Notes under the pieces: model-generated
Databases searched by the model: none
Told to the model about the DNA's origin: nothing
The model's input: only the letters and a program-made list of their open reading frames with translations
Shown: piece by piece, positions 9,347-31,385 of the stretch
How positions within the stretch are numbered: the first letter of the stretch is position 1
Layout: each line of letters begins with the position of its first letter
Position numbers and translations under genes: made by a program
Source: Candidatus Enterousia sp.
GTDB taxonomy: Bacteria; Pseudomonadota; Alphaproteobacteria; Rs-D84
Assembly (NCBI GenBank): GCA_045614145.1
Contig: JAZLCH010000010.1
Location: 82,489-146,488, forward strand
Reading direction: 5' to 3'
Length of the DNA stretch: 64,000 nt

Positions 9347-9393
9347 TGGCGCGCCCTGCAGGATTCGAACCTGCGACCTGCAGATTAGAAATC
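9347..9393 (-). pseudogene. 3' half of host tRNA-Arg(UCU), separated from its 5' half by the island
   Basis: Minus strand GATTTCTAATCTGCAGGTCGCAGGTTCGAATCCTGCAGGGCGCGCCA = anticodon loop, T-arm, acceptor 3' strand and CCA; no D-arm adjacent. Confidence 0.93.
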
Positions 9394-9466
9394 GTCTGAA
9401 CCGAAACCGATTGTTTGCCAGATTTCCGCCCTTTTCTACCATTTTACCCTTATTACAAATTCCATA

Positions 9467-9489
9467 CTATGTAGCAAATATGTAACATT
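9467..9489. repeat. Putative integrase arm-type sites, left end
   Basis: CTATGTAGCAAATATGTAACATT matches 31195-31217 at 22/23 positions. Confidence 0.75.
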
Positions 9490-9512
9490 TTTGTAGGAAT
9501 GCACATAAAACG

Positions 9513-10553
9513 CTACACAACTTCCCAATGACCGCCACGATCTGGACCAATACGACGAATTTTACCAGACTTTTTCAATTTATCCAAATTCCATTTTACG
9601 CCATCCGGACTCAGCCCCGTTGCGCTGGCCAAATCAGCACGCGTTGCACTTGGATTCTTTACCAAAACATCCAATATTTTCTGGGCAGTTTTCTGGGTAG
9701 TTTTCTGGGTAGTTTTTGCCCCCATTTCCTTTATCTGCATTTCACGATTATCAAGGCGATTTTTCTCGCCCAATAACAAATTACCAAAGAATTTGTTCAA
9801 GTATTCCATCGTGTACGGAATATTCCTTTCCAGATTTTGATAATTCGCACGAACCAGTGCATTTCTGAAATATTTCGCATGCTTTTCAAACATTTCATTG
9901 TTTGTATGCAAACCCAACGTATCTAAATACTTTATAATAAATACAACTGTTGCGCGAGTATTCCCCTCGCCAAACGGGTGTATTTGCCATATCCCAGACA
10001 TAAATCTTTCGATATGTTCTATGCGTTGGCGTTTGGTTAAACTGCTATAATCAAACTGTTTCTCTTGTGCAAAATCATATTCCAGCGTTTCAGCAATACT
10101 GTCTGCCCGCCCATAAACAACAGTATCATTATTCAATATTTCTTCTTTCTTGGTTATGTTATATGTGCGGAACTGACCAGCTATTTTTTTATCCAGAATA
10201 CCATCAAACAAAGCCCCATGAATCGATTTATATTCGGCCGGGCTGAATGTAAATGTCTTTTCACTTAGTAATTTGGCAATACGCGCTGACACCTTATCCG
10301 CTTCTTGCTCGTCTTGCTCTTTCTGGGTAGTTGCAGCATTTTCACGATAATAGCGATTTATTTCGCGTTCTGCATCATAGACCGATATTTTCCCCTCTAT
10401 ATTATCTTTCGCAATATCAATCAGATATCTAGATGGCGTTAAATTATCAACCTGTTGCAGACCAATGGCAACCCCCCAGTTCTCTGCACGAGTGCGTTTA
10501 TCTGGTTCGCCTTGCTTTTTATATTCGCTAAAATACTGCTTTTGTCTTGTCAT
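9513..10553 (-). CDS. Fic-domain protein with VbhA-like N-terminus and C-terminal wHTH
   Basis: HPFGEGNTRAT Fic motif; AIGLQQVDNLTPS N-region; IRRIGPDRGGHWEV winged HTH. Confidence 0.9.
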   Translation of the reverse strand: MTRQKQYFSEYKKQGEPDKRTRAENWGVAIGLQQVDNLTPSRYLIDIAKDNIEGKISVYDAEREINRYYRENAATTQKEQDEQEADKVSARIAKLLSEKTFTFSPAEYKSIHGALFDGILDKKIAGQFRTYNITKKEEILNNDTVVYGRADSIAETLEYDFAQEKQFDYSSLTKRQRIEHIERFMSGIWQIHPFGEGNTRATVVFIIKYLDTLGLHTNNEMFEKHAKYFRNALVRANYQNLERNIPYTMEYLNKFFGNLLLGEKNRLDNREMQIKEMGAKTTQKTTQKTAQKILDVLVKNPSATRADLASATGLSPDGVKWNLDKLKKSGKIRRIGPDRGGHWEVV

Positions 10554-11019
10554 CTCTGCATTTCATAGTAATCAAACTTCCCCACCTTTTCAACCAAGAA
10601 ATACAAGTGTTTTTAAATGTTTTCAATAAAACTAGGAGGTTGTTTGCATTAAAACGATAATTTGATAATACGTTCTGGTATAAGCGAAACAATATGACCA
10701 CGATATTATTATCTATAAAAAGTCATTTTTATATGAAATTTGCCTTGGTATGACAACATATCCTTTACAGGTTAAAATCAATGATGACATCTATCAAATT
10801 TCTTTCAACAGATTATTTAACGCCATGAATTTACAGACAAATTTTTATTTTGAAAACGCAATGTATTATTTTTGTACAAAAACAGATAAAACTGGATTAC
10901 AACTTGTAAACACACAAACGACTTCCCTAAAAAATAAGTGTTACATTTTTAGAAAATATATTGAAAATAAAGCATTTTTTTTCATAATATAATAATAAAT
11001 AAATTTGGAGCACACAAAA

Positions 11020-11790
11020 ATGAGCGGAAGTGATTATCTACACAATATTTTGATTAAAAAGGCATGCTGTTCCGAGACAGATCGGTTAAACCAATACAAT
11101 TTGGTAAAAAGAGAACTTATACCGATAATAAACCAATGGTCGGCTGGGTATTTAGAAGAAGTTTTTCAATCGGGTTCTTCTGCTAAAGGGACAGCAATTA
11201 AAGGCAAATCAGATGTGGATGTTTTTATATCCATAAAGTCTTCGTGTGATGCTACATTACAAAGAATGTACGAAACGCTTGGAGAAGCTGTCAGACGGGC
11301 TGGATACAATATACGTTATCAAAATGTTTCAATTGGCTTAAAAATAGGTAATATAGACGTGGATTTAGTGCCAGGAAAAAAAGACCCAGGCAATACAAAT
11401 TATCATAAGTTATATGTATCGAAAAAGCAGAGTTGGAGACAAACAAATGTGAAGCTTCAAATACAGAATATTAAAAATTCTCAACGTGCAAAATTTATAC
11501 AGCTTACAAAGATATGGCGAGATTGCCATAGGTTAGATTTTCCGTCCATGAATATAGAACTTATAGTTCTTGAGGCATTAAAAGGCTATCCGTACGATAT
11601 AAGTTTATCAGAGGGTTTTTTACAGGTTTTGAGATACATAGAAGACAAAATCTTATATGCATATCTAATAGACCCAGGCAATTCTGCAAATATCGTTTCT
11701 GATGATATGGCTAGTCAAGAAAAAATAGCTGTACAGCAGCAGGCTCGCAATAGCTTATCCCAACAATACTGGGGAGGTATAATATGGTGA
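11020..11790 (+). CDS. CBASS cGAS/DncV-like nucleotidyltransferase (CD-NTase)
   Basis: QSGSSAKGTAIKGKSDVDVF (GS..DxD), QNVSIG, DVDLVP, DPGNSAN; overlaps the NucC gene. Confidence 0.9.
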   Translation: MSGSDYLHNILIKKACCSETDRLNQYNLVKRELIPIINQWSAGYLEEVFQSGSSAKGTAIKGKSDVDVFISIKSSCDATLQRMYETLGEAVRRAGYNIRYQNVSIGLKIGNIDVDLVPGKKDPGNTNYHKLYVSKKQSWRQTNVKLQIQNIKNSQRAKFIQLTKIWRDCHRLDFPSMNIELIVLEALKGYPYDISLSEGFLQVLRYIEDKILYAYLIDPGNSANIVSDDMASQEKIAVQQQARNSLSQQYWGGIIW

Positions 11791-12494
11791 CATTAACGGA
11801 TTTGTTTCTTAGCAAACAACAAGAAATGCAGGCAAGTCTCAGAACCTCGTTATCTCATTGTGTTGCGCAGGGTGATAATTCTGAAGAAACGTGGAAACAG
11901 TTTTTTAAGAAGTATTTGCCTGCTAGGTATGCGTGCGACAAGGGTTTTATAATCGATAGCGACAACCATTTAAGTGATCAAATAGACCTGATTGTTTATG
12001 ATAATTATTTTTCGCCGTTCTTTTTTAATCATGGAGGGAATACATATATTCCCGCAGAAAGTGTGTATGCGGTATTTGAAATAAAACCAACTCTAAATAA
12101 AAAAAATTTTAATTACGCAAAGGATAAAGCGTCATCTGTCAGATGTTTAAAAAGAACGAGTGCATCAGTCGTCGCCAATGGAAAAAAGTGTAAGGGGCGG
12201 CAACAATTTCCTATAATCGCAGGCATCTTAACAAATACAAGTTCTTGGGAAAGCGTATTGCCAAATCAGGTAGCAGATCCTGCTGCGGACGATTTTATAG
12301 ATTTGTGTTGTTCGGCAGATGGGTATAGCTGGACAGTACGACAAACTGAAGATGGATACAAATATATAAAAAACACACATAGAGGCGAAAGCTTATTGGC
12401 GTTTTTAATGGAGTTGCTACATCAACTTCAGAAAAGAGGAACTGCGGCAGCATTAGATATTCCAAAATATTTTGATGGTTTTGAAGCAAAGTGA
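11784..12494 (+). CDS. nucC: CBASS effector endonuclease, NucC family
   Basis: GDNSE..W..YLP.RY, QIDLIVYD..SPF, IPAESVYAVFEIK, K.SSVR.LKRTS. Confidence 0.9.
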   Translation: MVTLTDLFLSKQQEMQASLRTSLSHCVAQGDNSEETWKQFFKKYLPARYACDKGFIIDSDNHLSDQIDLIVYDNYFSPFFFNHGGNTYIPAESVYAVFEIKPTLNKKNFNYAKDKASSVRCLKRTSASVVANGKKCKGRQQFPIIAGILTNTSSWESVLPNQVADPAADDFIDLCCSADGYSWTVRQTEDGYKYIKNTHRGESLLAFLMELLHQLQKRGTAAALDIPKYFDGFEAK

Positions 12495-12503: not shown

Positions 12504-12875
12504 ATGACCACAATACTATTATCCATTAAACCGCAATTTGTTGAAAAAATACTTTCCGGTGATAAGTGTTTTGAATTCAGAAAGCGCATCCCAAATAAGA
12601 CAATTGATAAAATTTTGATATACAGTTCTTATCCGGTGTGCACTGTTGTAGGAGAGGCAGAAGTTCTAAATATAATATCTACATCGCCAAAAAAGCTGTG
12701 GGAAGAAACTAAAAATCAATCGGGAATTGATTCTGAGTTCTTTTTCAAATATTTTACCGGCAAGGATACAGCATACGCATATAAGTTGGGCAAAATTACA
12801 AAATATACAACAGCAAGGAAACTGAGTGATTTTGGGATAAAATGCGCCCCTCAGTCATTTGTTTACATAAAGTAA
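12504..12875 (+). CDS. ASCH (PUA-like) domain protein
   Basis: ILLSIKPQFVEKILSGDKCFEFRKR (GxKxxExR), IYSS.P, APQSFVY. Confidence 0.88.
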   Translation: MTTILLSIKPQFVEKILSGDKCFEFRKRIPNKTIDKILIYSSYPVCTVVGEAEVLNIISTSPKKLWEETKNQSGIDSEFFFKYFTGKDTAYAYKLGKITKYTTARKLSDFGIKCAPQSFVYIK

Positions 12876-12876: not shown

Positions 12877-13842
12877 TTACCATTCTACATCGATGTAAAA
12901 CATATCAGCTGGTTGACCAAGCAACTGTATATCGAATTTCAAGCTTGGTTCTACAATCGTGCTGGCACTGTGTATTCTGAAAGATATCGCCCAACCATTG
13001 TCCATTGTTAACACGATGGTCGTTTTAGAACCGGGTTTATATGCTAATTCAATGATTCTTGTAGGTAGTTTGATTTTTGGGATGCTAATCTGCGGTTTAG
13101 ACACTTTAGATGACTGGTTTAGGGTGCCGCATACATTAAATGGCATTACTGTGGTTTTATGATCGTTATGGTGGATTAGTTTATAATAATCTTTGCCATT
13201 TGACCCCAGTAGATATGCGATTATTCCGGATGTAACTTTATCATTATGCAGTTTGAATAGGCTATTAAACTCATCAATAAATGCATCTAAAACTGGCACA
13301 TAAACGCCATCTTGCTTATCTGGTAAATCTGACCACGCTACACCGTTATGTTTCAACTCTATAAGCCGGTTAAAAATTGGAGTTATATCAGAAAAATATT
13401 TGTCCGAGCACGGTAAACCAAACCATTCGTTCCCAAAATCAATATGTTGGGACAATCTGGAGTGTTTAAGAGCAGCATGATTATGTTTCACGGATATACC
13501 TATCTCCCATTTAATATCTCTGCGAATTATGATGACATCACGAATATCACCAGTTCTTGCAATATTATCTGGTTGTAAAAATATTGTCAACGCATCTCTT
13601 CCGTCTTCAATGATCTTTGGTTCCATTTGAATAATGACATCTATACCGGCTGCAGCTGATTTTAGCATATCTTGCTGAACTGTTTCTGTTACACATTCAA
13701 AACATTGTTTAGCTACCGCAAAGCTGGAGTTTTCTTCAATCGTCACAGGACGGATCTTGGAAACCTTATCATGTATTGTTTGCAAACATGCGTATTCGTA
13801 TGCCTTGCCCATAATCATTGATTGTTCGGTGGATCTGTTCAT
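12877..13842 (-). CDS. Type II restriction endonuclease, HaeIII family (GGCC inferred)
   Basis: [43 protein letters not shown]; coupled to an M.HaeIII-like MTase. Confidence 0.85.
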
Positions 13843-14828
13843 TCGGTTAAATCCTCCATAATCTGTTTTGCAATTTCAAAAGCTAGATTGACAGGAACTG
13901 CATTGCCAATCATTTTGTATCCCACAGCAACATCGGTATATTCAAAAATGAAGTCATCAGGGAAAGTTTGGATTCTTGCACATTCACGAACAGAAAGGCG
14001 GCGATAAGCAGATTCTTGTCCCTTTACAAACTCGAATTTATCTGTGCTTGCTTTTTGCATTGCTGGTGCGCTGGGATGTAATGGTGCCTGGCGACCACCT
14101 GCCTGAATAGTGAATGAAGGCTCATTCCAACCCCTTACACGATTTCGTGACATAAATATAGAAGACCAGCCACCGATCATGTATTCGTGATTAGGAATTT
14201 GCAATTCTCCATTGGTCTTGTTCTTTTCTTTTGCCGGAATTGCAGTCGGCAAATCGCCAATCGCATCTTTCAGGGTTGGCTTATATTCTTTTGGTGCAGG
14301 AAACACAAATTTCTTCTTAAGATCTTTACGATATCCAATTATGATAACCCTTTTGCGGTTTTCTGGAACGTTATAATCATTAGCATCAACCAACTGCCAG
14401 AATATGTCGTATCCGCAATCTTCAAACTCTTTTAGAAAACCTTGAAATGCCTCAGCGTGTTTCGGATGTAATATACCAGCTACATTTTCTACCAAGAAAA
14501 ATTTCGGTTGTTTTACCTTCAAAATACGAATGTAATCGTAAAACAATTGTCCGCGTTTATCTTCTATGCCGCGTCTTGCACCAGCTTCCGACCAACTTTG
14601 GCACGGGGGACCTCCAATAATACCAATAGAATCAGGAATTTCACTGGCGTCAACATCAGTAATGCTGCGTCTATCCAATTTTGTGTGTGGAAAATTGCGC
14701 TCAAATGTTGCCCATATTGTTTTATCAAATTCGTTAGCCCATATGGTATGAAAGCCGGCTTTTTCAAACCCTAAATCCAAACCGCCAGCACCACTAAAAA
14801 AAGACACAACACTAAAATCTTTCAACAT
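13839..14828 (-). CDS. DNA (cytosine-5)-methyltransferase, M.HaeIII-like
   Basis: [18 protein letters not shown]; [26 protein letters not shown] closely resembles M.HaeIII; YKMIGNAVP. Confidence 0.93.
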
Positions 14829-14959: not shown

Positions 14960-15556
14960 TCATTTTCTGCTTTCAAGAAATCGCGAAATTGTGGGCGGGC
15001 TGACCTGGATAGTTCTGGCAATTTTTCGTTTGGAAAATCCTGCTGAATACATATCTAAAATCAGATTTTCGTGACCATCAATGATATGATACGCGTTCTT
15101 TTGACCATTTGGACGGCCTAATTTTACACCGCGTAATTGTAGTGCTGCCAATGCCTCTTTGGTGCGCTGGGCGATAAGATTGCGCTCAATCTCGGCGGAT
15201 AGCCCAAACGCAAATGCTAACACTTTGGATTGTATGGTGTCGCCCAATTCATAGCCGTCTTTAACGGTATAAAGCCGCGCACCGATTTTCATACAATGTT
15301 CTAGTATTCGCATAATCATGAACATTTTTCGTCCCAGGCGCGAAAGTTCGCTGCATATTATAACGTCTCCCGGATTTAAATGTCGTAAAACACCGCCCAA
15401 TGCACGTTGTTCCGGTTCTTTGGTACCAGATATGCCAGCGTCTTCAATATATTTATCAATACAAAGTCCCAATGCCCCGGCTTTGGATTCAATGCCCAGT
15501 TTTTGATTTTCACAGTCCTGTTTGTCGGTAGAAACCCGAATATACCCATATATCAC
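14960..15556 (-). CDS. Serine recombinase (resolvase/invertase) with C-terminal HTH
   Basis: YGYIRVSTDKQ, SELSRLGR, AEIER.LI.QRTKEAL, GVKLGRP; GTG start. Confidence 0.93.
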   Translation of the reverse strand: MIYGYIRVSTDKQDCENQKLGIESKAGALGLCIDKYIEDAGISGTKEPEQRALGGVLRHLNPGDVIICSELSRLGRKMFMIMRILEHCMKIGARLYTVKDGYELGDTIQSKVLAFAFGLSAEIERNLIAQRTKEALAALQLRGVKLGRPNGQKNAYHIIDGHENLILDMYSAGFSKRKIARTIQVSPPTISRFLESRK

Positions 15557-15709
15557 AATAAACTCCTTTTGTTTGTTCTATATGCCGTAGATTTCATTTT
15601 ATTCAAGTAAAAATAATGTTGATATTACCCTTGTTTTTACTAAATGTCGTATTATTAAACTGGATGTTTGCGCTGGTTGTGCTTTGTTTGTTCTAAAAAA
15701 GGAGTAAGC

Positions 15710-16879
15710 ATGACATTAAAAGAAACAATCAACAACCTAGAAATACAGATAATCAAGGATAAACAGCAACTTCTTCGCCTAGAGCGGGAATTAAATAAAA
15801 ATCAACAACTAACAATAAAAATCTTGCAACAAATTTGTCAGCAAATGCAAATGACACAAAAAACACAGTATACCGAGCGGTTATCAATTGGTGAGGTGCT
15901 GGAACGTTACAGAATAAAAAACGGAATAGACAGCGAGGAGACCAAGCGTAAATGCAAAACTATAGCATATTATTCAAATAAAGCAGGCTTAGAATTGAAA
16001 TGCGAGTATACAAAATTTCATAAAGATGTAATTTTGTTGAAAATATTTAATGAAATATCAGATAGAAAAGATATAAAGGGGGATCAGAAAGCAAAGCATG
16101 CTAGATGGATTGTTAGTTTTGTAAAATTTGCAGTATTTGCATATCCTGACCTGTATAAAACAGATGTGCTGGTTGGACTTCCATCTATGAAAAAAACACC
16201 CAAAAGCGCCAAATGTCCTCATACACCATATACAGATGAACAATTGAAGTCTATTTTTGACCCGAATAAGAAATTCTTTTACTATAATCCAGAGATTTTT
16301 TGGGGGTGTATGATAGCATTATTTACTGGCGCAAGAAAAAATGCAGCATTTACATTACAATACAAAGATATAATTCTAAAAGATGGTATTTGGTGTATAA
16401 ATTTCATAGAAGACAGTCCAGGAATTAAACAATTAAAAACAGAAGAGTCTGAGCGAATAGTACCAATTCATTCGGCGCTTTTGAAAATGGGTTTCTTAGA
16501 ATACATCAATAAAAAACATAAAAATAATGATCAAGATTTTATCTTTAAAAAGACATGCTTGACCTCCAAAGGCAATCTAAATCCTCACATTACTAGGAAC
16601 TTTTTTATATACCTAAAAGATATCGGTGTAAAAAATCCAGAATATGGAAGGTTTGATTTTCATTCATTCCGTAAAAATGCAAACATTATGATGGAAAAAT
16701 GCGGGATACTCCGCCCCTATATAGATAAGATTATCGGTTGGATGAGTCGTGGTAGCGAGGGCGAAAGATCATATTCAAATTACTCTATAAAACAAGTGTC
16801 GGAACAATTAGAATTATTACGCTACGATTGTCTTAAAACGGAATTTAAGAGATGGCAAAAGATAATGTCTAAGATATAA
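15710..16879 (+). CDS. Tyrosine recombinase/integrase
   Basis: FTGARK (R), LKT (K), FHSFRK (HxxR), IIGW, RSYS (Y); N-terminal coiled coil; GGAG RBS before ATG 15710. Confidence 0.9.
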   Translation: MTLKETINNLEIQIIKDKQQLLRLERELNKNQQLTIKILQQICQQMQMTQKTQYTERLSIGEVLERYRIKNGIDSEETKRKCKTIAYYSNKAGLELKCEYTKFHKDVILLKIFNEISDRKDIKGDQKAKHARWIVSFVKFAVFAYPDLYKTDVLVGLPSMKKTPKSAKCPHTPYTDEQLKSIFDPNKKFFYYNPEIFWGCMIALFTGARKNAAFTLQYKDIILKDGIWCINFIEDSPGIKQLKTEESERIVPIHSALLKMGFLEYINKKHKNNDQDFIFKKTCLTSKGNLNPHITRNFFIYLKDIGVKNPEYGRFDFHSFRKNANIMMEKCGILRPYIDKIIGWMSRGSEGERSYSNYSIKQVSEQLELLRYDCLKTEFKRWQKIMSKI

Positions 16880-16951: not shown

Positions 16952-17485
16952 ATGACAACGATAAACAAGCAACACGGGTTCTATGGTGCGCTGGTGGCAC
17001 GCTATGACAGTCCGGTCCACCGACAGGAAATCTGGGACATAGCGATTAAACGCCTGGGGCAAATTCACCCCGAAAAGTCCGCTGATGAAATCATGGAATT
17101 TCTAAACGGGCGTGCCGGGCGACACCTGGCTGACGAGATATTCGACGGCCCCGGCACCCTGAGTTATGGGGTGGCGATGCTGCGTGTGGCAATGCTGAAC
17201 AAACTAAAAATGACCAAGTGGTGGGCGTATCACACCGGCACAACACCACGCCCCATCACGGTGGACAAGCGCTTGCTGTACCGGTCTGCAATCAAGAACG
17301 AAATGCGCAACCGACGCATCCGCAAATTGCTGGACGGTGCGCTGGCCTGTGCCCAGGACGGCGTATGGCAGACCCCAGAAATGTGGTTAAAATCAGACCT
17401 GACAGGGCTGGACGAACTGGAATTGATGTGGGGGCATATTCAACAACACTTGAAAACCAAAGGTGTCGCACATGGAAACGATTGA
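16952..17485 (+). CDS. Hypothetical protein (mobile-element core)
   Basis: 177-aa ORF with GAGG RBS, overlapping the next ORF. Confidence 0.7.
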   Translation: MTTINKQHGFYGALVARYDSPVHRQEIWDIAIKRLGQIHPEKSADEIMEFLNGRAGRHLADEIFDGPGTLSYGVAMLRVAMLNKLKMTKWWAYHTGTTPRPITVDKRLLYRSAIKNEMRNRRIRKLLDGALACAQDGVWQTPEMWLKSDLTGLDELELMWGHIQQHLKTKGVAHGND

Positions 17486-17741
17486 TACGCTGGAACGGAA
17501 ACTGCACACCGCCCGACAACAAGCATGCAACGCTAAATACCCAACGGGGCTGATAGTTGATCTGAACGGGCCAGCCGGCAATATCTTCTATCTTATGGGC
17601 ATGTGTAATCGGCTGGTACGGGAACTGCAATTAAGGCCCGCTGAACGCCAAGAATTTGAAACCGAACTATATGCCACCAGGGACTATCAATCCCGACTGG
17701 CTGTCATGCAAAAATGGTTCGGCATTGTGTTTGTGGAATAA
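17472..17741 (+). CDS. Small phage-type hypothetical protein
   Basis: DLNGPAGNIFYLMG resembles the G(P)DGNAF motif of small phage proteins; AAGG RBS. Confidence 0.65.
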   Translation: METIDTLERKLHTARQQACNAKYPTGLIVDLNGPAGNIFYLMGMCNRLVRELQLRPAERQEFETELYATRDYQSRLAVMQKWFGIVFVE

Positions 17742-17834
17742 AATCTAGATAGACTTGTATAAGATTATCCAAATATATTTTCTTACTTTATTGCTTTTTC
17801 TTGATTTTTATGGATTATAAGGTATGATTTCTGT

Positions 17835-18287
17835 ATGAAAAATAATAATCGACGTGTTATTCTTAACCGTTTTTCTGAAGAATTAGACAATGAGACAAAG
17901 TGGACACGGGCACGCGTTGAGGCACAAATTTACTCTGCGGTCATCCTTGCTATTCAGATGGATAAAAACGACAAAACACGTCAACACATGTTGGCAACAT
18001 GGCCGGCGGAATGTTCCGTTCGATATGAATGGTTTGAATCTGTTATTGCAGACGTTAAATTGCCCCCAAATATAGCCCCCTTTGATAACACACACGATAA
18101 TTTTTATAATGTTTTGGTGCATTGGTTAGATTCTGTGGACAGTGTCACAGATAGAAAATTATTGATTCTGCATTCAATCGGTTTATCAATGAATAAACTC
18201 AGCAAAAAGACTGGGCTGTTACGTCAGACCGCCAGTCGTCGTTACACCAACGCAATCGATGCGCTGGTTTGGAAATTAAACCACTAA
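17835..18287 (+). CDS. Putative transcription regulator with C-terminal sigma-4/Q-like HTH
   Basis: WLDSV...DRKLL...GLSMNKLSKKTGLLRQTASRRY..AIDAL pattern. Confidence 0.6.
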   Translation: MKNNNRRVILNRFSEELDNETKWTRARVEAQIYSAVILAIQMDKNDKTRQHMLATWPAECSVRYEWFESVIADVKLPPNIAPFDNTHDNFYNVLVHWLDSVDSVTDRKLLILHSIGLSMNKLSKKTGLLRQTASRRYTNAIDALVWKLNH

Positions 18288-18293
18288 ACAAAC

Positions 18294-22905: not shown

Positions 22906-24326
22906 CTAAACTTTTGTTTCAATATACCGTTTTGTATCATATATTCAGCGGTTAGAGGCAATTGGTCTAAAAACGCTCTTTCATGCGATATAACCAGAAA
23001 AGCCCCAGGGTATTGAGATAGAACCGATGCAATATATTGCTTTGTTTCAATGTCAAGGTTGTTTGTTATTTCGTCCAGAATCAATAATTTTGGTGGTCGT
23101 GCAGCAATTTGTGCCAATGATAATCGTGCCTTTTCACCGCCTGACAATGTCTTGACCTTGGCGAACACTTCTTCATTTTTTCTGAATAAGAATGAATTTA
23201 GATGTTTTCTTATTTCCAAGGAATTCATGGATGGATTTCTGTCTTGAATAGTGCCTTCTACGGTTTGTTCTGAATCAAGATTTTGATAATGTTGTTCCAA
23301 ATACCCTATATCCCTGGCGGGCAACAAATGCCAATCACCATTACACGTAACCTTTGGGTCTTGCATTAACGCACGAATAAAGGTAGTTTTACCAGATGCA
23401 TTACTGCCACTGAGGGCAATCTTATCATTAGAATCAATTGAAAAATATATTTCAGACAAAACCGTTTGAGTTCCATAACCGCATTCCCCAAAAGAAACAG
23501 AGATAAGATTACTGTTTGACTGGGTATATGCGCTGTCTAAAACAAATTTTGGTCTGTATTCTTCTGGTAATCTGTTACTACCTATCTCGGTTTGAACTTC
23601 TTCTAATTTTTCACGCAACTTAGTAATTTTTGCACCAGCTTTTGCCTGGGCGTTACCAGATTTTGCATCAAAGCCCAGTTTGTCATTGTCTTTGGCTTTC
23701 TTTTTACCGGACTTTGCCATTTTTTGTGCTTCTTGCTGACGCTGAATTCTTAGTTTTTTCTTTTCTTTTTGTAATGAATCCAATGCTTTCTGCTGAACTG
23801 ACAGCTGAATTCCCTTTTCAGACATATAGTCATAGTAATTGCCAAAGAAAACATTTATGCGACCATTTTCGATATGCCAAATTTTATCAACGCATTTTGT
23901 CAGCAAATCAATATCGTGTGTTACAATTATCAGTGTTCCTTGATAATTGTTCAACATTCTCATCAATGAATATTTGGTATTTTGGTCTAGGTGATTTGTC
24001 GGCTCATCCAACACCAATACATCTGGATGGCTTGCAAGTGCATCTGAAAAAGATTTATTAAACCTTTCGCCACCACTTAGATCGGTGTGTTGTAAAACCG
24101 TTTGTGGCACATAACCAATACGTAATCCACCAACGCCAGAAACTCGTCCTGAGGTCGAATCCATATTATCTGTTAAAATTTTTAACAAAGATGATTTGCC
24201 GGTCCCGTTACGGCCAATAATACCAATACGTTCCCCAGGAAGGATTTGAGTAGAGAACCCAGAAAAACAAACCTTGTGTGGGAATTCAAGAGATAAATTC
24301 GTTATAGATATTGGTTTATGTGCCAT
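22902..24326 (-). CDS. ABC-F family ATPase
   Basis: Two ABC domains (GRNGTGKS / GSNASGKT, LSGGE x2, LDEPTNHLD, LDEITNNLD), charged linker, no TM. Confidence 0.9.
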   Translation of the reverse strand: MAHKPISITNLSLEFPHKVCFSGFSTQILPGERIGIIGRNGTGKSSLLKILTDNMDSTSGRVSGVGGLRIGYVPQTVLQHTDLSGGERFNKSFSDALASHPDVLVLDEPTNHLDQNTKYSLMRMLNNYQGTLIIVTHDIDLLTKCVDKIWHIENGRINVFFGNYYDYMSEKGIQLSVQQKALDSLQKEKKKLRIQRQQEAQKMAKSGKKKAKDNDKLGFDAKSGNAQAKAGAKITKLREKLEEVQTEIGSNRLPEEYRPKFVLDSAYTQSNSNLISVSFGECGYGTQTVLSEIYFSIDSNDKIALSGSNASGKTTFIRALMQDPKVTCNGDWHLLPARDIGYLEQHYQNLDSEQTVEGTIQDRNPSMNSLEIRKHLNSFLFRKNEEVFAKVKTLSGGEKARLSLAQIAARPPKLLILDEITNNLDIETKQYIASVLSQYPGAFLVISHERAFLDQLPLTAEYMIQNGILKQKFR

Positions 24327-24387
24327 AAACAACCTCTTATGTTTCTAGAAAGATACCGCAAAAATATGAAAAATCAATAAAATATGT

Positions 24388-25224
24388 TTAGAGAAGCTCT
24401 AGTACCCCATCGCCACCAAATAAAAGTCTGCTGATATGAAAAGCTTTATATCCGTTGTCTGACAATAATTTTTGTAATAGTTTTTGATTGTTAGAAATTT
24501 CAGCCGGCGCAGTTTCTGTTAAAGGATGTGAGATGTGTAGCAACTCTATATTGTCAAATACAACAGGTTTTCCAAGACGTAAATAACACAAAAAAGCAAA
24601 AGCATCGTCTTCACACGAATATCCGGGGTATTCAGGGAATCCGCCAATAGCATAAAAATCTGTTTTAGCAATTATGCCAAAATTGCCTATGAATGATTTT
24701 AGAAGTATTTTTACAGAATTTTGATTCTTATATCTGATTTCTGGTGCTGGTACTATTGCATCTTTTTTTAATTCTGTTAAATCTCCGCTTTTCGTTATTT
24801 TGAGTAATGCGGTTCTGTTTTTTGAAACCCAGTTCAAATCTGGCGACCATAAACGATTGGCTCCGTATCCATATATTGCATCTTGGTTGCAATAAGCTAT
24901 CAATCTCTCGATACAGTCGTTTTGCATTGGTATTGTGTCATCATCATTAAACAGAATGTACCGACTTTCTACAAATTTTACACCAAAGTTACGAGCGCCA
25001 CCGATTGTCAAATTACACGAAATTATTCTGACATCTGGCAAGCCATCACAAAATTCTTGTAATTTTGCTGTATTTTGTGCATCAGAACCATTGTTTATCA
25101 CAATTATTTGGTGCGGTTTTACTGTCTGATTCAAATAAGCGTTTATCACAAATTCAACAGCCCCGGCCTTAGTGGTATATGAATTATGAGTCAGAATCAA
25201 GACGGATATATTAGACCGTTTCAT
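24388..25224 (-). CDS. Glycosyltransferase family 2
   Basis: SVLILTHN, INNGSD, GARNFG, LFNDDD, GGFPEYPGYSCEDD. Confidence 0.85.
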   Translation of the reverse strand: MKRSNISVLILTHNSYTTKAGAVEFVINAYLNQTVKPHQIIVINNGSDAQNTAKLQEFCDGLPDVRIISCNLTIGGARNFGVKFVESRYILFNDDDTIPMQNDCIERLIAYCNQDAIYGYGANRLWSPDLNWVSKNRTALLKITKSGDLTELKKDAIVPAPEIRYKNQNSVKILLKSFIGNFGIIAKTDFYAIGGFPEYPGYSCEDDAFAFLCYLRLGKPVVFDNIELLHISHPLTETAPAEISNNQKLLQKLLSDNGYKAFHISRLLFGGDGVLELL

Positions 25225-26176
25225 TTAATAACTTCGCTAAAATTTCTTGTTTATGTTCATCTATATATTTAAATTTCTTTATATCACGTTGTAAAAGTCC
25301 TTCAAAGAAAGACTCTTTATAATCTATCAAAGAATTTTCTAGGACAGACGATTGAAGAAAACGCAAAAATGTAAATTCAAATGTATATTTTAGGTCTTGA
25401 TCGGTAACACCTGTTGTTTCTTTGCATACCACCAAGAAGTCTGCAGATTTTTTTAAATTTTCATCAGACAAATCACTATTTAGGAATGCAAACCACACAA
25501 AATTTATCATATCTTCTGCATAATGACCACGATGAACCAATTCAAAGTCTAAAACTGAGCTAATCCCGTATTTTGTGAATAATATATTCTCGTTATGAAA
25601 GTCACCATGCACAAAATCGTTGGCATCAGCCAACCAATTACGCAATGTGGTATTTTGCTTATATTTTGATAGAATTTCTTGTTTTAGTTTTATGATATTT
25701 TGTACCGTATCCCGGTATGAATCCGTGCTTTTTAATTTTTTAGCGGTGACGTCTAATTTTTTTATACTGCTATCTATATCATAATACAAATCTAAACTGT
25801 GCTTTAAATCAGGTGTAACCTGTTGTTGTTTAAATCTTTTCAACACCCTGGCAATTGGCTCATAATAACATTTTTTTATATCAACACCATGCAAAACTTT
25901 GCCTTCTAGATATGGTAATACGACAAATTTATGTTCTGAATTTATAAGCAGTGGTTTTATAAAATAGCGCTGTCGATCTGTTTTCATAATTTTATTAACA
26001 GATTGTAGCTTATCAATATAGTTATCAAACGCATTTCTTAGGAATTTTACAACATATTTTTGTTCATCATCTGTATGAACAATGTAGTTCTCTGCTGTAA
26101 AACCACCAAGCCGCTCGTCACGACAAATATGCTTTTTTAATAGCTTTTCTAGTAAGAGCTTGTATTCCTGATTCAT
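25211..26176 (-). CDS. APH/choline-kinase-like phosphotransferase
   Basis: YVVK, HGDFHNENIL, VLDFE. Confidence 0.85.
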   Translation of the reverse strand: MNQEYKLLLEKLLKKHICRDERLGGFTAENYIVHTDDEQKYVVKFLRNAFDNYIDKLQSVNKIMKTDRQRYFIKPLLINSEHKFVVLPYLEGKVLHGVDIKKCYYEPIARVLKRFKQQQVTPDLKHSLDLYYDIDSSIKKLDVTAKKLKSTDSYRDTVQNIIKLKQEILSKYKQNTTLRNWLADANDFVHGDFHNENILFTKYGISSVLDFELVHRGHYAEDMINFVWFAFLNSDLSDENLKKSADFLVVCKETTGVTDQDLKYTFEFTFLRFLQSSVLENSLIDYKESFFEGLLQRDIKKFKYIDEHKQEILAKLLNETV

Positions 26177-26257
26177 TTTATTGAATTTTATTTGTTTTTA
26201 GCCAGAAAATCAAGATTTTATTTGACTTTATGATTATTTGTTTTATGCTTTTTAAGC

Positions 26258-26851
26258 ATGAAAAAGCCGCATTTGTACTTAGATTGTGACGAGGTGTTGT
26301 TAAAAACGGCTGGTACACATGCGCTTTTTTTAGAACAACAATATGATATATCAGTAGACCAATCTCTGTATCCCAGCCAATGGTCATTTCCACCAAATAG
26401 CGGATTAGATTTCAAGAAGTCTACGGAAAACTTTATTAAATCTGATTATTTTGCAAATATTCCCGCTATGCCAAATGCAGTAGAAGCAGTCAAGTTATTG
26501 TGCGAGCACGATTATACAATGTCTATTGTAAGTTCTATTTCTAGTGATAGTATAGCACAACAAAAACGAATATCTAATTTATACGATGTTTTTGGTAATT
26601 CATTTTATGAAATCCAGTTATTGCCTTTGGGCTGGGCAAATAAAATAGCTTTTTATCAATCGAAACCGCATGGAATCGTTATTGACGACAGTATTTTTAA
26701 TATACAAGATGCTATTAAATGCGGTCATGAAGCAGTGTTTATACGAATTCCCCAGAATAAATCACATCATGAATTAGCCAAACAACAATGTATAACATCG
26801 AATTCCAGCCTGTTCGATTGGGTAAAAAATCAGACCATTAAACAAAGGTAA
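26258..26851 (+). CDS. HAD phosphatase, 5'(3')-nucleotidase-like
   Basis: LYLDCDEVL (DxD), P.PNAVEA, IVSS, K, IDDS. Confidence 0.8.
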   Translation: MKKPHLYLDCDEVLLKTAGTHALFLEQQYDISVDQSLYPSQWSFPPNSGLDFKKSTENFIKSDYFANIPAMPNAVEAVKLLCEHDYTMSIVSSISSDSIAQQKRISNLYDVFGNSFYEIQLLPLGWANKIAFYQSKPHGIVIDDSIFNIQDAIKCGHEAVFIRIPQNKSHHELAKQQCITSNSSLFDWVKNQTIKQR

Positions 26852-26855
26852 AAGT

Positions 26856-28166
26856 GTGCAAATAACAGTTTATCCTTCTAAACCACGAAATAATACAGTT
26901 GTTAGCATCGGTGGACACAAGCATTCTTTTGTTCAGATTTTATCAGCAGCAGTGATATTAAAACGGGAGTGCACGATACACAACGTTCCTAAAACAGATG
27001 ACGTGCTAATACTAAAGCAAATTATTCGCGATTTAGGTGGGGTAGCATCTTTTAGAAACCACAAATTTTATCTTAACCCAAAAGACATAAAATACAAGGT
27101 CCCATCGGTTGATTTGTGTAATAAAATACATGGTGCATTATATTTCCTGTTTGCTTTAGCGATACGTTTTCACCGGTTTCCTTTGCTGGATACAGGGGGC
27201 TGTCAGATTGGAAAAAACAAGGCACGTCCCAATGATCATTTATTGGAAATATTAAATCTATTTGGAAAAACAGAACAACTGAATGATGTAGAGTTCTCGT
27301 TCCAGCCATATAACAAGCAAAATATACGCTTAAACATTATGCGTTTTTCTGATAGTTATTTCCGTTTGTCAGGGGAAAAAATTAGCAGCGCGACCAAATT
27401 GGCTATTTTAGCCTCTCTTACGAACAAATATCATAAAACAGTTATAAAGAATCCATACATAAAGACAGATGTGTTAGATTTATTAGATTTTGTGGCTAAA
27501 GATGGACATGTTGTATCCAGCGATAAAAAACATATAACTATTACCCCAAAACAAACAAAGCGTCCTGCAAACATTGACTTCACAATATCTGATTGCCAAA
27601 GTGAAGTTTTTACATTTATCACCTTGGCCCTTGTAAACAACATCAAACTAATATTACAGGTAAATTCAGCAGATAATGTTAACCGCATATTGTATCACGA
27701 ACTTAAAGCACTGCGAAAAATGGGCATCAATATACAATTTCAAGAACACCAAATAATTATACCCAATAATCAAGTAATAAAGTCTAAAAATATAGTAATT
27801 AAACAAAATCAAATTCAAAGCGATCATCAGCCCTTTTTTGCACTATTATTGTTACATGGGAATAAGTCAGCAACAATTCGTGAAGAGGTATGGCAGTCTC
27901 GTTTTGAATATGCAAAAGAATTATGTAAACTGGGGCATAAAATAGATTTCGATACGGGACGAATAACAGTTCATCCTACAAAGCGTATCAAAAACAACAC
28001 GAGAACCGTACTTTGCGCCACAGACACTCGTGCGGCTGCTGTGTTGGCAATCGCAGCGATTAAACCGGGAAAGACAACTGCCATTAAACACTTTGAACAT
28101 GTCAACCGTGGGTACGAGGATTTTATTAAGAAATTACAACAAATTGGGGTAAATATATCACAATGA
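26856..28166 (+). CDS. Divergent MurA/NikO-like enolpyruvyl transferase
   Basis: GGHKHS, NVP..DDV, GGCQIG..RP (active-site Cys), SDHQP, SRF, TDTRAA, RGYE. Confidence 0.8.
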   Translation: MQITVYPSKPRNNTVVSIGGHKHSFVQILSAAVILKRECTIHNVPKTDDVLILKQIIRDLGGVASFRNHKFYLNPKDIKYKVPSVDLCNKIHGALYFLFALAIRFHRFPLLDTGGCQIGKNKARPNDHLLEILNLFGKTEQLNDVEFSFQPYNKQNIRLNIMRFSDSYFRLSGEKISSATKLAILASLTNKYHKTVIKNPYIKTDVLDLLDFVAKDGHVVSSDKKHITITPKQTKRPANIDFTISDCQSEVFTFITLALVNNIKLILQVNSADNVNRILYHELKALRKMGINIQFQEHQIIIPNNQVIKSKNIVIKQNQIQSDHQPFFALLLLHGNKSATIREEVWQSRFEYAKELCKLGHKIDFDTGRITVHPTKRIKNNTRTVLCATDTRAAAVLAIAAIKPGKTTAIKHFEHVNRGYEDFIKKLQQIGVNISQ

Positions 28167-29359
28167 AAATACTGTCTGTTCTAAATATTTCTAATAAAGA
28201 AAATATAACCTGTGATTCTGGTTATATTTTTCAGGCTGTGCTTGCAGAAGAATTTAACAAAAATGGGCACGAATATATTGTTGCGGGCTCTAATTGTAAG
28301 CAATTTAGAAAAGCAAAAATTCCACACACCAAAAAGGTCTATTTACCATTGGGGACAAATAAATATAGTGCCAGATTTGATTTTGATTCTAGGTATTTTT
28401 ATAAACTGCTAGACAAAATAAAACCGGATATTATTTTTAATACCCAAGCAGAATTAACACCCGCTATAAAATCTGTACTGGCATGGAATAAATTAAATAT
28501 ACCTGTGGTAACCTATTGTCATTATCCCGCATTATGGGCCAATAAACCGAATTCATCAATCCCGGAATTAGACCAAAGTTTAAATTCCGAAAAATTGTGT
28601 ACGCCTATTTTAATGAACATACTAAGCGCCCTACAAATATCTGATGCTTTTATAATACAAAGCAAATTTGCCAAAGAATTATTAGAAAAGGCAGCAAAAT
28701 TTCACAATATAAAATATAGTAGAAGTAGATTTTTTGTCATAGCACCACCGGCAGACGAAAAGTTCTTGGAATATATATATACAAATGAACCTGATAGAAA
28801 TTTTGTATACAACCACAGATTGTATAAGACATACGGAACAGAAAAATTTATAACTATATTCAAAAAGTTGAACAAGAAATATGGTGTTAATTGCTCTGTT
28901 CTAGACCCTATGCAAAAACGTTCTAAACAACGTTCCGCACACAACAATACCCCGGCTGAATATTTACAACAAATGGCTCAAACGCAGGGATTCATTGTTG
29001 AGAGAAACAATAAGAACAGAAATGAATACAAGCGAATTTTATCAAAATCTCTTGCAGGTTTTGCTCCATTAAGACCGGCCTGCGTTTGGTCTATGGCCGC
29101 AATGGATTGTATGGGACTGGGAATTCCTGTAATTGCGCCAAATATGGCCGCGTTTCCCGAATTTATACCACAAAAACTGCTGTATAAAAATCAATCTGAA
29201 TTAGAAAATATTGTTAAAAACATTATCGAAGACAGCGCTTTCAGACAATCAATGTCTAGACAATGCTTTGATATAGCAAAGAAATATTCTGCAAAAAACA
29301 TTGCAGGCAAATTAGAAAGTGCTTTCAAACAAGTATTGGATAAAACATGTATGGAATAA
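28163..29359 (+). CDS. GT-B (family 4-like) glycosyltransferase
   Basis: KPDII, YCHYP, YNHRL, WSMAAMDCMGLGIPVIAP...FPE. Confidence 0.8.
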   Translation: MKILSVLNISNKENITCDSGYIFQAVLAEEFNKNGHEYIVAGSNCKQFRKAKIPHTKKVYLPLGTNKYSARFDFDSRYFYKLLDKIKPDIIFNTQAELTPAIKSVLAWNKLNIPVVTYCHYPALWANKPNSSIPELDQSLNSEKLCTPILMNILSALQISDAFIIQSKFAKELLEKAAKFHNIKYSRSRFFVIAPPADEKFLEYIYTNEPDRNFVYNHRLYKTYGTEKFITIFKKLNKKYGVNCSVLDPMQKRSKQRSAHNNTPAEYLQQMAQTQGFIVERNNKNRNEYKRILSKSLAGFAPLRPACVWSMAAMDCMGLGIPVIAPNMAAFPEFIPQKLLYKNQSELENIVKNIIEDSAFRQSMSRQCFDIAKKYSAKNIAGKLESAFKQVLDKTCME

Positions 29360-30981
29360 CAGGAATTGTCGGAAACGATAAAAAATATTTAACAAAATCT
29401 ATAAAGAAAATTTCTGGGCGGGGGCGCGCTTATGTTGTTCAGAATTTATCAGCAGATAAATATATAGCTTTATCCTTTACCAAAACGAACAAAACCCCAC
29501 AACCTGTTCATTTCTTTATAGATGAGTGTTCTGGGGATTTTTGCCTGTTTTACGGTATATTATACGATAAAAGTACAATTTATAAGTTTTTGGAAACAAG
29601 CGCAATATCAGATGATGCCGAACTTATTATGAAATTGTACAAAAAAATAGGGGCTAAATTTATAAAACACCTTGACGGTAGTTTTGTTATTGTTTTAGGC
29701 ACAAAAGGCAAGTTATCGCTAATTTCAGATTATTTTGGCACTAAAACCCTATATTATTCCGCCCCCCCAAATGATTACTTCGTTTTTTCTTCTTCGTTAC
29801 AATCAATATTACGCTATGTAAAAAAAGCCAAGATTTCAGAACGTGCTTTGGCCAGTTATTTACAATACCGTTTTGTTGCTCATCCTCTAACAATATTTGA
29901 AAATATATATAAGATATCGCCAAAACAAATAATCCAAATTGGCAACAAAATAATAAAAAAGCAATACACAAAGGATGTTGTGTCATCAAAATCTTTGAAA
30001 GATTGGGCACAGATTGTAGCAGACTGTCATTCTGATAAAACTGGATTGTTGTTAAGTGGTGGATTGGATTCAAGTATATTGGCATCGTTAACAGAACCAG
30101 TAAAAGCTTTTACTATCTCATACGAAACGCAGCATTCAGATACCGATTTATCTTGTGCAAAACTGGTTGCTGCAAAATTTAGCCATAAACATAACGTTGT
30201 GAAAATGAAATCTCGTGATATTTTGTCCGCTCTGAATAGTTCTATCTGTCAACTTGAAGAACCAATGTATTCTACCATTTCTGCCAGTAGCAACTTTTTA
30301 GCAAATAAAGCAAAAAAATCAGTAAGCACAATGATTACCGGCGATGGCGCGGATGAGCTGTTCATAGGATACAATTATATAAGAACAGCCCTAAACAGTC
30401 AAAATAACGAAATAGAAGAATACAAAAAGCAAATTTCATGGTGCGACGAATTGTTATGCAAACAGCTTCTTGGCAAAAATATTAAACATATTGACCTGAT
30501 TAAAGATACAACAGCGCATTTGGATTCGATATTGGATTTTGAGCAAAATTATCGCTTGCCAAATTATCACTTGTCTAGATTGGAAAAGATAATGGCTGCC
30601 AATAATATCATTGCGTGCACACCTTTTTTGTCGGAACAAATGTTAAATTATGTGTCTGCTTTTACAAATAAAACATTGTATACAACTCCACCAAAAAAAC
30701 ACCTTAGCCAACCATTTGTTGATGTTTTGCCTGTTGAAATTACCACTAGACAAAAACAACCATTTCCAGCTCCTTTTATTACATGGATAGATACATGCCT
30801 ACAAAAAGATATAATCAAGACTTTTTCTAATAAAAAACTAACCTGCAAACTAGGAATAAATCATCGTCATCTATTGGATTTAGCATACAAACAAGAAAAA
30901 CAATATCATGATTATACAACAATTTGGGGATTTTACATGTTGCTGCTATGGGTCAAGAAATTTTATAAACATATTGTTTGA
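29347..30981 (+). CDS. Asparagine synthetase B-like ATP-dependent amide ligase (catalytic Cys absent)
   Basis: MYGITGI (canonical MCGI), DYFGTKTLYY, LLSGGLDSS, GDGADELF.GY, RQKQPF..P. Confidence 0.85.
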   Translation: MYGITGIVGNDKKYLTKSIKKISGRGRAYVVQNLSADKYIALSFTKTNKTPQPVHFFIDECSGDFCLFYGILYDKSTIYKFLETSAISDDAELIMKLYKKIGAKFIKHLDGSFVIVLGTKGKLSLISDYFGTKTLYYSAPPNDYFVFSSSLQSILRYVKKAKISERALASYLQYRFVAHPLTIFENIYKISPKQIIQIGNKIIKKQYTKDVVSSKSLKDWAQIVADCHSDKTGLLLSGGLDSSILASLTEPVKAFTISYETQHSDTDLSCAKLVAAKFSHKHNVVKMKSRDILSALNSSICQLEEPMYSTISASSNFLANKAKKSVSTMITGDGADELFIGYNYIRTALNSQNNEIEEYKKQISWCDELLCKQLLGKNIKHIDLIKDTTAHLDSILDFEQNYRLPNYHLSRLEKIMAANNIIACTPFLSEQMLNYVSAFTNKTLYTTPPKKHLSQPFVDVLPVEITTRQKQPFPAPFITWIDTCLQKDIIKTFSNKKLTCKLGINHRHLLDLAYKQEKQYHDYTTIWGFYMLLLWVKKFYKHIV

Positions 30982-31063
30982 TAATCTGCCTTGCATCATA
31001 TTTACGCCCCCCCCTGTGGCAACACAATAAAATAAAAACCAGCATATTGCCGGCTTTAAACTT

Positions 31064-31140
31064 TGGCGTGCCCAGCAGGACTCGAACCTGCAACCTATTG
31101 CTTAGAAGGCAATTGCTCTATCCGATTGAGCCATGGGCAC
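31064..31140 (-). tRNA. tRNA-Arg(UCU), complete, island-borne
   Basis: GTGCCCATGGCTCAATCGGATAGAGCAATTGCCTTCTAAGCAATAGGTTGCAGGTTCGAGTCCTGCTGGGCACGCCA: 77 nt, all stems pair, anticodon TCT, encoded CCA. Confidence 0.96.
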
Positions 31141-31183
31141 ATAACCAACTTGTGGAATTTTACGCAAATATGCGGCCAATTCC

Positions 31184-31217
31184 TGTGTAACATTCTATGT
31201 AACAAATATGTAACATT
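31184..31217. repeat. Putative integrase arm-type sites, right end
   Basis: Three TGTAACA units; 31195-31217 matches 9467-9489 (22/23). Confidence 0.75.
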
Positions 31218-31344
31218 ATACATACAATTACATACAATTCAATCAATCTGTGTCAAGTTTCATACAGAACTGATTTTCACGCGCACCCGCACAAATCCAG
31301 CATTTATACATCTTTATCCAAATCTATCCATAAAAATTGCGGAC

Positions 31345-31385
31345 GATTAGAAATCTGATGCTCTATCCAGCTGAGCTAAGGGCGC
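31345..31385 (-). pseudogene. 5' half of host tRNA-Arg(UCU)
   Basis: Minus strand GCGCCCTTAGCTCAGCTGGATAGAGCATCAGATTTCTAATC; its acceptor strand GCGCCCT pairs with AGGGCGC of the 3' half at 9351-9357. Confidence 0.93.

Follow-up and report, generated by a model that had tools for sequence, protein, structure and literature searches.

The closest described counterpart of the locus reported here is tRNA-dependent lysogeny, known from the actinobacteriophages Fionnbharth (subcluster K4) and those of cluster L (Guerrero-Bustamante and Hatfull 2024, PMC10865867). In the parts of that report drawn on here, these phages use a tyrosine integrase with arm sites, the bacterial attachment site (attB) lies in a single-copy tRNA gene, the shared core is ~10 bp long and no tRNA is rebuilt upon integration. 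The lysogens need the phage tRNA of the same isotype to survive, and evasion of anticodon nucleases is raised there as speculation. The same source names prophage Lj965 of Lactobacillus johnsonii as a probable additional case. Prophages of Sinorhizobium meliloti that resemble Mesorhizobium phage vB_MloP_Lo5R7ANS disrupt tRNA-Leu(UAG), with two cases in 27 strains in the portions of the reports used (PMC11476347, PMC12429752). Classical tRNA islands and tycheposons, as far as the sections consulted describe them, regenerate their target tRNA (PMC4383910; 10.1101/2020.12.28.424599). The present locus lies in a 64,000-nt stretch of the genome of Candidatus Enterousia sp. (contig JAZLCH010000010.1 of assembly G000; the stretch is called the window below). 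An integrated element of about 21.96 kb (9394–31344), referred to as the island, separates the two halves of the host gene for tRNA-Arg(UCU) and carries a complete tRNA gene with the same anticodon. According to the part of the description consulted, Candidatus Enterousia comprises reduced-genome gut bacteria of the order Rs-D84 (PMC12306168).

The strategy is already known, also in Alphaproteobacteria. New are the non-phage, cargo-carrying island family that employs it, the minimal-genome host, the position of the replacement tRNA beside the attachment site of the element (attP) and facing the same way as the host promoter, and a source allele that can be named. No description of a non-phage island of this kind was found in the literature, subscription journals and supplements lying outside the scope of that search. 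A preliminary description of the locus had proposed a disrupt-and-replace strategy. The host tRNA is indeed broken, it is not repaired and a replacement is carried, with which the relatives agree; the strategy is not novel, being that of tRNA-dependent lysogeny.

The two halves of the host tRNA gene (Table 1) lie 22 kb apart, and the only sequence common to both is the 11-bp core GATTTCTAATC, which is the anticodon loop. Each half is unique in the 904,645-base assembly (blastn-short). When joined in silico, the halves yield a 77-nt tRNA-Arg(TCT) according to ARAGORN, with 7/7 pairs in the acceptor stem, 4/4 in the D stem, 4/5 in the anticodon stem and 5/5 in the T stem. The preliminary description had located the halves and their core correctly. 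Its wording that they join into a perfect tRNA is a slight overstatement: the join is a valid tRNA-Arg(TCT) with one T-C mismatch in the anticodon stem. The same mismatch is present in the intact gene of the relative G024.

Neither junction rebuilds a tRNA, as had been noted before. None is called there by ARAGORN, run on the 64-kb window, or by Rfam, run on positions 8500–32500 with E-values up to 1. ARAGORN calls one tRNA in the whole window and Rfam accepts a single one in its range (31067–31140, minus strand, 73.4 bits). This is the complete tRNA-Arg(UCU) inside the island end, previously recognised together with its orientation. Its distance to the core is 204 nt, and it is the only intact tRNA-Arg(TCT) among the 43 tRNAs that ARAGORN finds in the assembly. 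An additional Rfam match to 'Plastid-ycf2' on the plus strand (31066–31140) scores 33.6 bits, below the gathering score of 65.7, and is an artefact of the complement of the tRNA.

Short repeats accompany the core at both island ends. The motif TGYTACAYA occurs ten times in the window (2.4 expected), a number reached by none of 100 shuffled sequences. Five of the ten copies, each of them on the minus strand, are split between the two island ends, where they form the arms of the inferred attP. These arm repeats flank the host-type core and not the anticodon loop of the island tRNA. The left arm is conserved in six genome loci and seven metagenome contigs. Within the anticodon loop, the crossover would take place in TTTCTAA, because the host-specific letters stop just before this stretch, because the halves of a second lineage (L056, see below) have only TTTCTAAT in common and because the 3' part at a junction of genome G044 has only TTCTAA in common.

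The candidate promoter of the island tRNA that had been pointed out earlier, TTGAAT-N16-TATAAT at 31242–31215 on the minus strand, matches the consensus at 10 of 12 positions. In aligned copies of the element the site reads TTGAAT...TATAAT or TTGAAA...TAAAAT (inspected by eye), and it is overlapped by the arm repeats. Between the promoter-like site of the host tRNA gene (Table 1) and the island tRNA no terminator-like site is predicted.

Relatives were compared across 101 genomes of the genus, the present one included, with thresholds of at least 89% identity for the integrase int2 and at least 96% identity for the island-type tRNA. All sampled relatives have genomes of 0.6–1.1 Mb. The empty site, an island-free locus with an intact tRNA between tspO and marR as anticipated in the preliminary description, is found in G024 (L114). 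There, the gene order is rodZ-dus-tspO-tRNA-Arg(TCT)-marR, and the intact tRNA is the same allele as the halves in the window, which are of host origin. In G074, the same element with the same gene order is located between both tRNA halves. It measures 13.2 kb, does not contain the glycan-type cargo of the island and has only 53 bp between integrase and island tRNA.

The junction of core and spacer is present in 11 of the 101 genomes. The int2 integrase occurs in ten genomes, and all ten are among these carriers; in the eleventh, G086, the junction lies at a contig end. The island-type tRNA is found in 16 genomes (the ten carriers with int2 and six genomes without the junction). An intact host-type anticodon arm is present in 70 genomes, 68 of which have exactly one match. 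Among the 11 carriers it is found in G019 only; the other ten have no intact host-type gene.

A set of 24 integrase loci from named metagenome-assembled genomes (MAGs) gives a corresponding picture. In 17 of them, integrase and island tRNA are accompanied by the core, the host 5' half and a spacer of about 204 bp. The remaining seven comprise a locus with a truncated 5' half (L046), the divergent lineage L056, two loci with intact host-type tRNA (L044 and L049) and three loci whose contigs stop before the junction could be read (L036, L039 and L048). The host 5' half occurs as four alleles (H1, H1', H2 and H3), each with unrelated upstream flanks and promoters, and the junction alignment shows that similarity between elements starts at the core. 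On the left side, one conserved arm plus core is joined to differing host 3' halves in six genome loci and in five of seven metagenome contigs. The integrase is 89–97% identical between genomes whose Dus proteins are 67–82% identical, which points to horizontal spread, and near-identical integrase loci stem from MAGs of goat, sheep, horse, deer and other guts. The element family was found in roughly one sampled species in ten and appears to spread from species to species within a gut alphaproteobacterial genus whose genomes measure 0.9 Mb.

The island is very probably a mobile element that int2 integrates into the single-copy tRNA-Arg(UCU) gene and that carries the replacement tRNA with it. 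In the proposed mechanism, attP would consist of left arm, core and right arm; the whole tRNA gene would follow the right arm, and the integrase gene would come next. The int2 enzyme would recombine attP with the host gene, the two sharing only GATTTCTAATC, and integration would leave two dead tRNA halves. The island tRNA would take over the decoding of AGA from its own promoter-like site, the host promoter-like site pointing in the same direction, and the resulting dependence of the host would stabilise the island. Precise excision would restore the host gene in G000.

This arrangement resembles tRNA-dependent lysogeny, as described in the parts of PMC10865867 consulted, in the tyrosine integrase with an arm-binding domain, the attB within a host tRNA gene (single-copy there and probably so here), the short core (about 10 bp there, 11 bp here) with flanking arm-type sites, the lack of a tRNA at the junctions, the element tRNA with the same anticodon and the minimal tRNA set of the host. 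The attB in a tRNA gene, the absence of a rebuilt tRNA and the element tRNA of the same isotype are features of that system that the locus has; the element itself does not appear to be a temperate phage. Unlike those phages, the island carries no capsid, tail and lysis genes but a terS-like gene, defence genes and a glycan cluster. The island targets tRNA-Arg(UCU) and the actinobacteriophages tRNA-Lys(UUU), and the host of the island is a reduced-genome gut alphaproteobacterium. Furthermore, in contrast to the actinobacteriophages, the replacement tRNA of the island is directly beside attP and oriented like the host promoter. That the element tRNA is needed was established experimentally in the actinobacteriophages, whereas it is inferred for the island.

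Several observations weigh against the proposed reading; they concern the mobility of the island, the dependence of the host, the assignment of the enzyme and a number of deviating loci. With respect to mobility, the element in G000 might be a fixed, immobile remnant and the tRNA replacement permanent. A 20-nt word of left arm plus core, sought in public collections as the mark of an excised circle or attP, gave no match in viral contigs, and its seven matches in metagenome contigs are all integrated left junctions and include no circle. Such an outcome is what a remnant would produce, but the circle search gives no evidence either way. Sequencing depth was inspected for the 13.2-kb sister element of G074 (L123), not for the G000 island, in four runs (X2, X3, X4 and X7) available as Logan contigs, which drop rare variants. 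In the gut runs X2, X3 and X4 the sister element is at about flank depth, as a fixed element would be. In X7, one contig joins positions 2315 and 15526 via 11 shared letters, corresponding to an intact host-type tRNA; it has 24 letters on the shorter side, so that the same flanks cannot be assigned. The low coverage of the island interior in X7 was not used as evidence.

The halves are also decayed or mismatched in some relatives: the 3' half is cut short in G054, only six of seven acceptor pairs form in G074 and the halves of G044 do not match. In these three genomes the replacement thus seems to be becoming permanent. In G000, however, int2 has a full-length, uninterrupted reading frame that contains the catalytic motifs, arms and cores are intact, and joining the halves still gives a valid tRNA. 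A fixed remnant is therefore judged unlikely for the present genome, although it retains more weight than the other alternatives.

With respect to dependence, AGA is in real use by the host, with 1075 codons in 684 long open reading frames (ORFs) outside the island (4.3 per 1000 codons); inside the island the frequency is 12.6 per 1000. The other arginine tRNAs found in the assembly by ARAGORN have the anticodons CCU, CCG and ACG, none of which reads AGA by established decoding rules. Since AGA is used and no other arginine tRNA found reads it, the host probably depends on the island tRNA. The preliminary description had named a second tRNA-Arg(UCU) gene as the observation that would remove this dependence. 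None is present in the assembly, which is itself incomplete for tRNAs: it is 96.7% complete in 11 contigs, and tRNA-Asn, tRNA-Ile(GAT) and tRNA-Pro(TGG) are missing from the 43 tRNAs. Judged from this genome alone, a second copy in unassembled DNA is thus possible, and the carrier G019 does have a further tRNA-Arg(TCT), intact and of a third allele. On the other hand, the ten carriers without an intact host-type gene include several that are 97–99% complete, and nearly all genomes with the host-type gene have the single match given above. A host that does not depend on the island because of an unassembled copy is accordingly rather improbable.

With respect to the enzyme, int2 has the domains of a P4-like integrase, with three Pfam domains above cut-offs, and aligns with XerA and XerD across the HDLRH (HxxR) and terminal Y motifs. 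It is the candidate enzyme for the attachment site on the ground that it accompanies the junction in ten of ten genomes. Two other recombinases are encoded in the island, and the assignment to int2 was made by co-occurrence alone. A composite of two elements could be envisaged, in which int2 acts as a classical integrase, with the island-type tRNA as the target that it restores, and the host-type junctions were made by int1 or the resolvase. The three recombinase genes of G000 fit such a composite, as does the far junction of G044, which carries an island-type 3' part as classical integration would leave. However, an island-type 3' fragment is not found anywhere in the G000 assembly, and int1 is present at only two of the 24 integrase loci (L038 and L057), whereas the host-type junction is present at 17. 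The position of the arm repeats around the host-type core and the co-occurrence of junction and int2 argue against a composite as well, which is very improbable on this evidence.

The deviating loci are of different kinds. At the left junction of G044 (L113, 3236–3291), island arm and core continue into an island-type 3' part (positions 34–77, 100% identical). The right junction (17855–17895) contains an H1-type host 5' half, and the two halves form no tRNA. In L044 and L049, the integrase is located beside an intact host-type tRNA, and no arm repeats are present within 10 kb. L046 retains 16 nt of the 5' half, and its core is joined to non-tRNA sequence. In the metagenome contigs L127 and L129, left arm and core are likewise followed by non-tRNA sequence, which could reflect a secondary site or a deletion. 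G019 is the carrier with the extra gene mentioned above. Two explanations, homologous replacement and a tandem integration with subsequent deletion, were considered for G044, L044, L049, G019, L046 and L127/L129, and neither fits all of them.

Two of these loci have further peculiarities. In L049 (11263–11560), the last 18 nt of the intact H1-like tRNA occur once more between this tRNA and the integrase. They are preceded by about 95 nt whose end resembles an inverted tRNA 3' end. A further integration event at the 3' end of the gene may have left this trace. Contig L125 (G019:C39, 786–1773) contains a cluster of tRNA-Ser, tRNA-Ala and tRNA-His, with the third-allele tRNA-Arg(TCT) on the opposite strand. 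G019 also has the island and a split H1 gene; the extra tRNA-Arg(TCT) could be a second gene, part of another mobile element or the result of a mixed bin.

A second lineage with the same logic is represented by L056, whose integrase is 58% identical (Table 1). Its replacement tRNA-Arg(TCT), encoded on the opposite strand, differs in the acceptor stem but retains the core. The contig is assigned to an 'uncultured Muribaculaceae' MAG; a tspO homologue nearby suggests that it is alphaproteobacterial and mis-binned. It had been claimed that the new anticodon arm of the island tRNA cannot be re-targeted by the same integrase. This is unsupported, considering the island-type 3' part at the left junction of G044 and the full core kept by the replacement tRNA of L056.

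The island tRNA itself has a recognisable origin. In five of the six junction-free genomes with the island-type tRNA (G085, G095, G057, G012 and G049), the tRNA adjoins tspO and occupies the position of the host-type gene. The upstream region there is a different one, with a promoter region of its own but neither 5' half nor spacer. These five species are more distant; their Dus is about 66% identical to that of G000. The preliminary description had held that the same tRNA at this locus in relatives lacking the island would speak against an island-borne gene. Formally, these five genomes show just that, but in distant species and behind a different upstream region, so that the island-borne nature of the gene in G000 stands. 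That the tRNA at 31064–31140 is native, as its identical counterparts beside tspO in the five species might suggest, and that the halves are chance matches or pieces of an unrelated pseudogene can be practically dismissed: the unique halves join into a valid tRNA matching the intact G024 gene at the same locus, and the tRNA accompanies integrase, spacer and core into hosts that differ in their flanks and have four tRNA alleles between them.

The island tRNA is, as judged from these comparisons, probably the native allele of a sister clade in the same genus. About 35–42 bp 3' of the tRNA are common to the native loci and the element, while the spacer has no similarity to the upstream regions of the native island-type tRNA in the four genomes examined. 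A simple capture of the tRNA by aberrant excision from native hosts is unsupported, as the spacer is unlike the native upstream regions. The allele may have passed from host to element or from element to host. It is 96–100% identical across carriers, and the element copies vary in the D loop and T loop only. By count from the sequences, island type and H2 allele differ at 10 of 77 positions; eight of these differences are compensatory changes in four stem pairs, one is in the anticodon loop and one in the variable region. Because of the compensatory changes, both alleles look like working genes.

The S. meliloti prophages, and likewise Lj965 as cited in PMC10865867, are comparable in that integration into the middle of the tRNA inactivates the gene and the element brings a tRNA of the same isoacceptor type (PMC11476347, PMC12429752, in the parts consulted). 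The replacement tRNA of the S. meliloti prophages resembles that of other Alphaproteobacteria, in the same way that the one of the island matches the allele of a sister clade. These prophages are intact and reside in large genomes, as opposed to a non-phage island family found in roughly one in ten of the species sampled here.

The other features of the island are listed in Table 1. Its left part is a stack of defence genes, namely a cyclase/NucC pair resembling the cyclic-oligonucleotide-based anti-phage signalling system (CBASS), a HaeIII-type restriction-modification system, the Fic protein PDC-S72 and PDC-M11B. The pair is a candidate CBASS, with a CD-NTase-type cyclase gene that overlaps the effector gene. 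The resolvase and int1 follow inside the island; with int1 rare in sister elements, they suggest a nested or fused element. The conserved module upstream of int2 comprises ORF177, DUF6362, the HTH_17 ORF, DUF6291, the small-terminase-like ORF and ORF88.

Table 1. Features of the island and its host tRNA gene, with the tRNA pieces of the second lineage. Positions refer to the window except for L056.
Feature	Position	Strand	Remarks
Displaced 3' half of host tRNA-Arg(UCU)	9393-9347	-	last 47 nt through CCA; starts with GATTTCTAATC; core copy 9383-9393
Left arm of inferred attP	9460-9490	-	two TGYTACAYA repeats, 9468-9487
Fic domain and winged-helix protein	9513-10553	-	PADLOC candidate PDC-S72
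Oligonucleotide cyclase (CBASS-like pair)	11005-11790	+	SMODS; PADLOC Cyclase, E 2.2e-82
NucC-type endonuclease (CBASS-like pair)	11784-12494	+	DUF6602; PADLOC NucC effector, E 4.6e-76
ASCH-like protein	12504-12875	+	PADLOC candidate PDC-M11B
Type II restriction-modification pair: HaeIII-family endonuclease and C5 cytosine methylase	12877-14828	-	
Serine recombinase, resolvase type	14960-15556	-	
int1, second tyrosine recombinase	15668-16879	+	accessory
Conserved module upstream of integrase	16952-20068	+	adjoins integrase in relatives too
HTH_17 excisionase-like ORF	18448-18657	+	E 4.5e-9
Small-terminase-like ORF	19362-19841	+	phrog_57, E 1.9e-27
int2, P4-like tyrosine integrase	20087-21355	+	Arm-DNA-bind_3, SAM-like and catalytic domains
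Glycan-type cargo, 9.7 kb, low GC (about 0.33)	21358-31053		between int2 and island tRNA; limits from L018 alignment
Terminator-like hairpin 3' of island tRNA	31035-31057	-	similar sequence 3' of native copy in G085
Island-borne tRNA-Arg(UCU)	31064-31140	-	ARAGORN; Rfam 73.4 bits; every stem fully paired; same direction as halves
Spacer, right arm of inferred attP	31141-31344	-	three TGYTACAYA repeats, 31184-31215; promoter-like site 31242-31215
5' half of host tRNA-Arg(UCU)	31385-31345	-	first 41 nt; ends in GATTTCTAATC; second core copy 31345-31355
Promoter-like site of host tRNA, TTGAAT-16-TAAAAT	31422-31395	-	directed through 5' half and spacer to island tRNA
tRNA-Arg(TCT) pieces of L056	578-624, 11277-11353, 12120-12160		halves share only TTTCTAAT; GCTACA arm repeats on both sides

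The glycan-type cargo encodes an acetyltransferase, three glycosyltransferases, a double ABC ATPase, an APH-fold kinase, an EPSP-synthase-like enzyme and an AsnB-like amidotransferase. Most sister elements (G074, G044 and others) lack it, but L036 and G006 have it too. Other elements have a module of 0.9–1.2 kb in the gap between integrase and tRNA. The gap thus looks like a hot spot for the insertion of cargo. Elsewhere in the assembly, a permuted two-piece transfer-messenger RNA with the tag AANDNVRLAMAA was observed (contig C6, 95704–96059), a form that is expected in Alphaproteobacteria.

No capsid, portal, tail or lysis genes were recognised among the island ORFs in Pfam and PHROGs scans, and neither was a primase or replication gene. 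Phage-type matches are limited to the small-terminase-like ORF and the integrases. As it stands, the element therefore appears not to be a prophage, yet it acts like the known phage system. By gene content, it would be a satellite-like defence and glycan island without phage structural genes. Phage satellites similar to phage-inducible chromosomal islands (PICI) or to tycheposons measure about 10–20 kb, combine an integrase, an excisionase or regulator, a replication module and a packaging-hijack gene such as terS, and are mobilised by a helper phage. Of these components, the integrase, the HTH_17 ORF and the terS-like ORF were recognised here, and the sister element measures 13.2 kb.

With tycheposons and classical islands, as described in the parts of the reports consulted, the element has in common a tyrosine recombinase, excisionase-like and terS-like genes, cargo and a tRNA site (PMC4383910; 10.1101/2020.12.28.424599). 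A streamlined genome, as in the Prochlorococcus hosts of tycheposons, and a displaced 3' tRNA fragment at the far end are further points in common. Unlike classical islands, the element supplies a whole tRNA gene instead of a 3' part and does not regenerate its target (PMC4383910). At the 5' half, the sequence that follows the core on its 3' side is unrelated to the tRNA, so the tRNA restoration typical of classical islands does not occur.

The locus extends tRNA-dependent integration, which had been established experimentally in mycobacteriophages only and noted in a few prophages, to a non-phage, cargo-carrying island family and to a minimal-genome host with what is probably a single decoder of AGA. 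With four host alleles, a single island allele and halves that have decayed to differing degrees, the relatives make up a natural data set. It can be used to study the origin of such elements, the question of addiction modules and the swapping of essential tRNA alleles between species. The locus also matters for annotation: programs that expect a regenerated tRNA together with a displaced fragment would misplace the ends of the island.

A broader interpretation, tentative and open to considerable doubt, is that a satellite-like defence island holds an essential tRNA function hostage, drives allele replacement and couples tRNA expression to its integration state. If so, the hostage tRNA would protect the element from loss in genomes under strong deletion pressure. 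A side effect would be the replacement of tRNA-Arg(UCU) alleles across species, with the sister-clade allele left as the sole working gene once a half has decayed, as in G054. Expression of the replacement tRNA could then differ between the integrated and the excised state, given that the arm sites overlap its promoter and the host promoter faces the tRNA.

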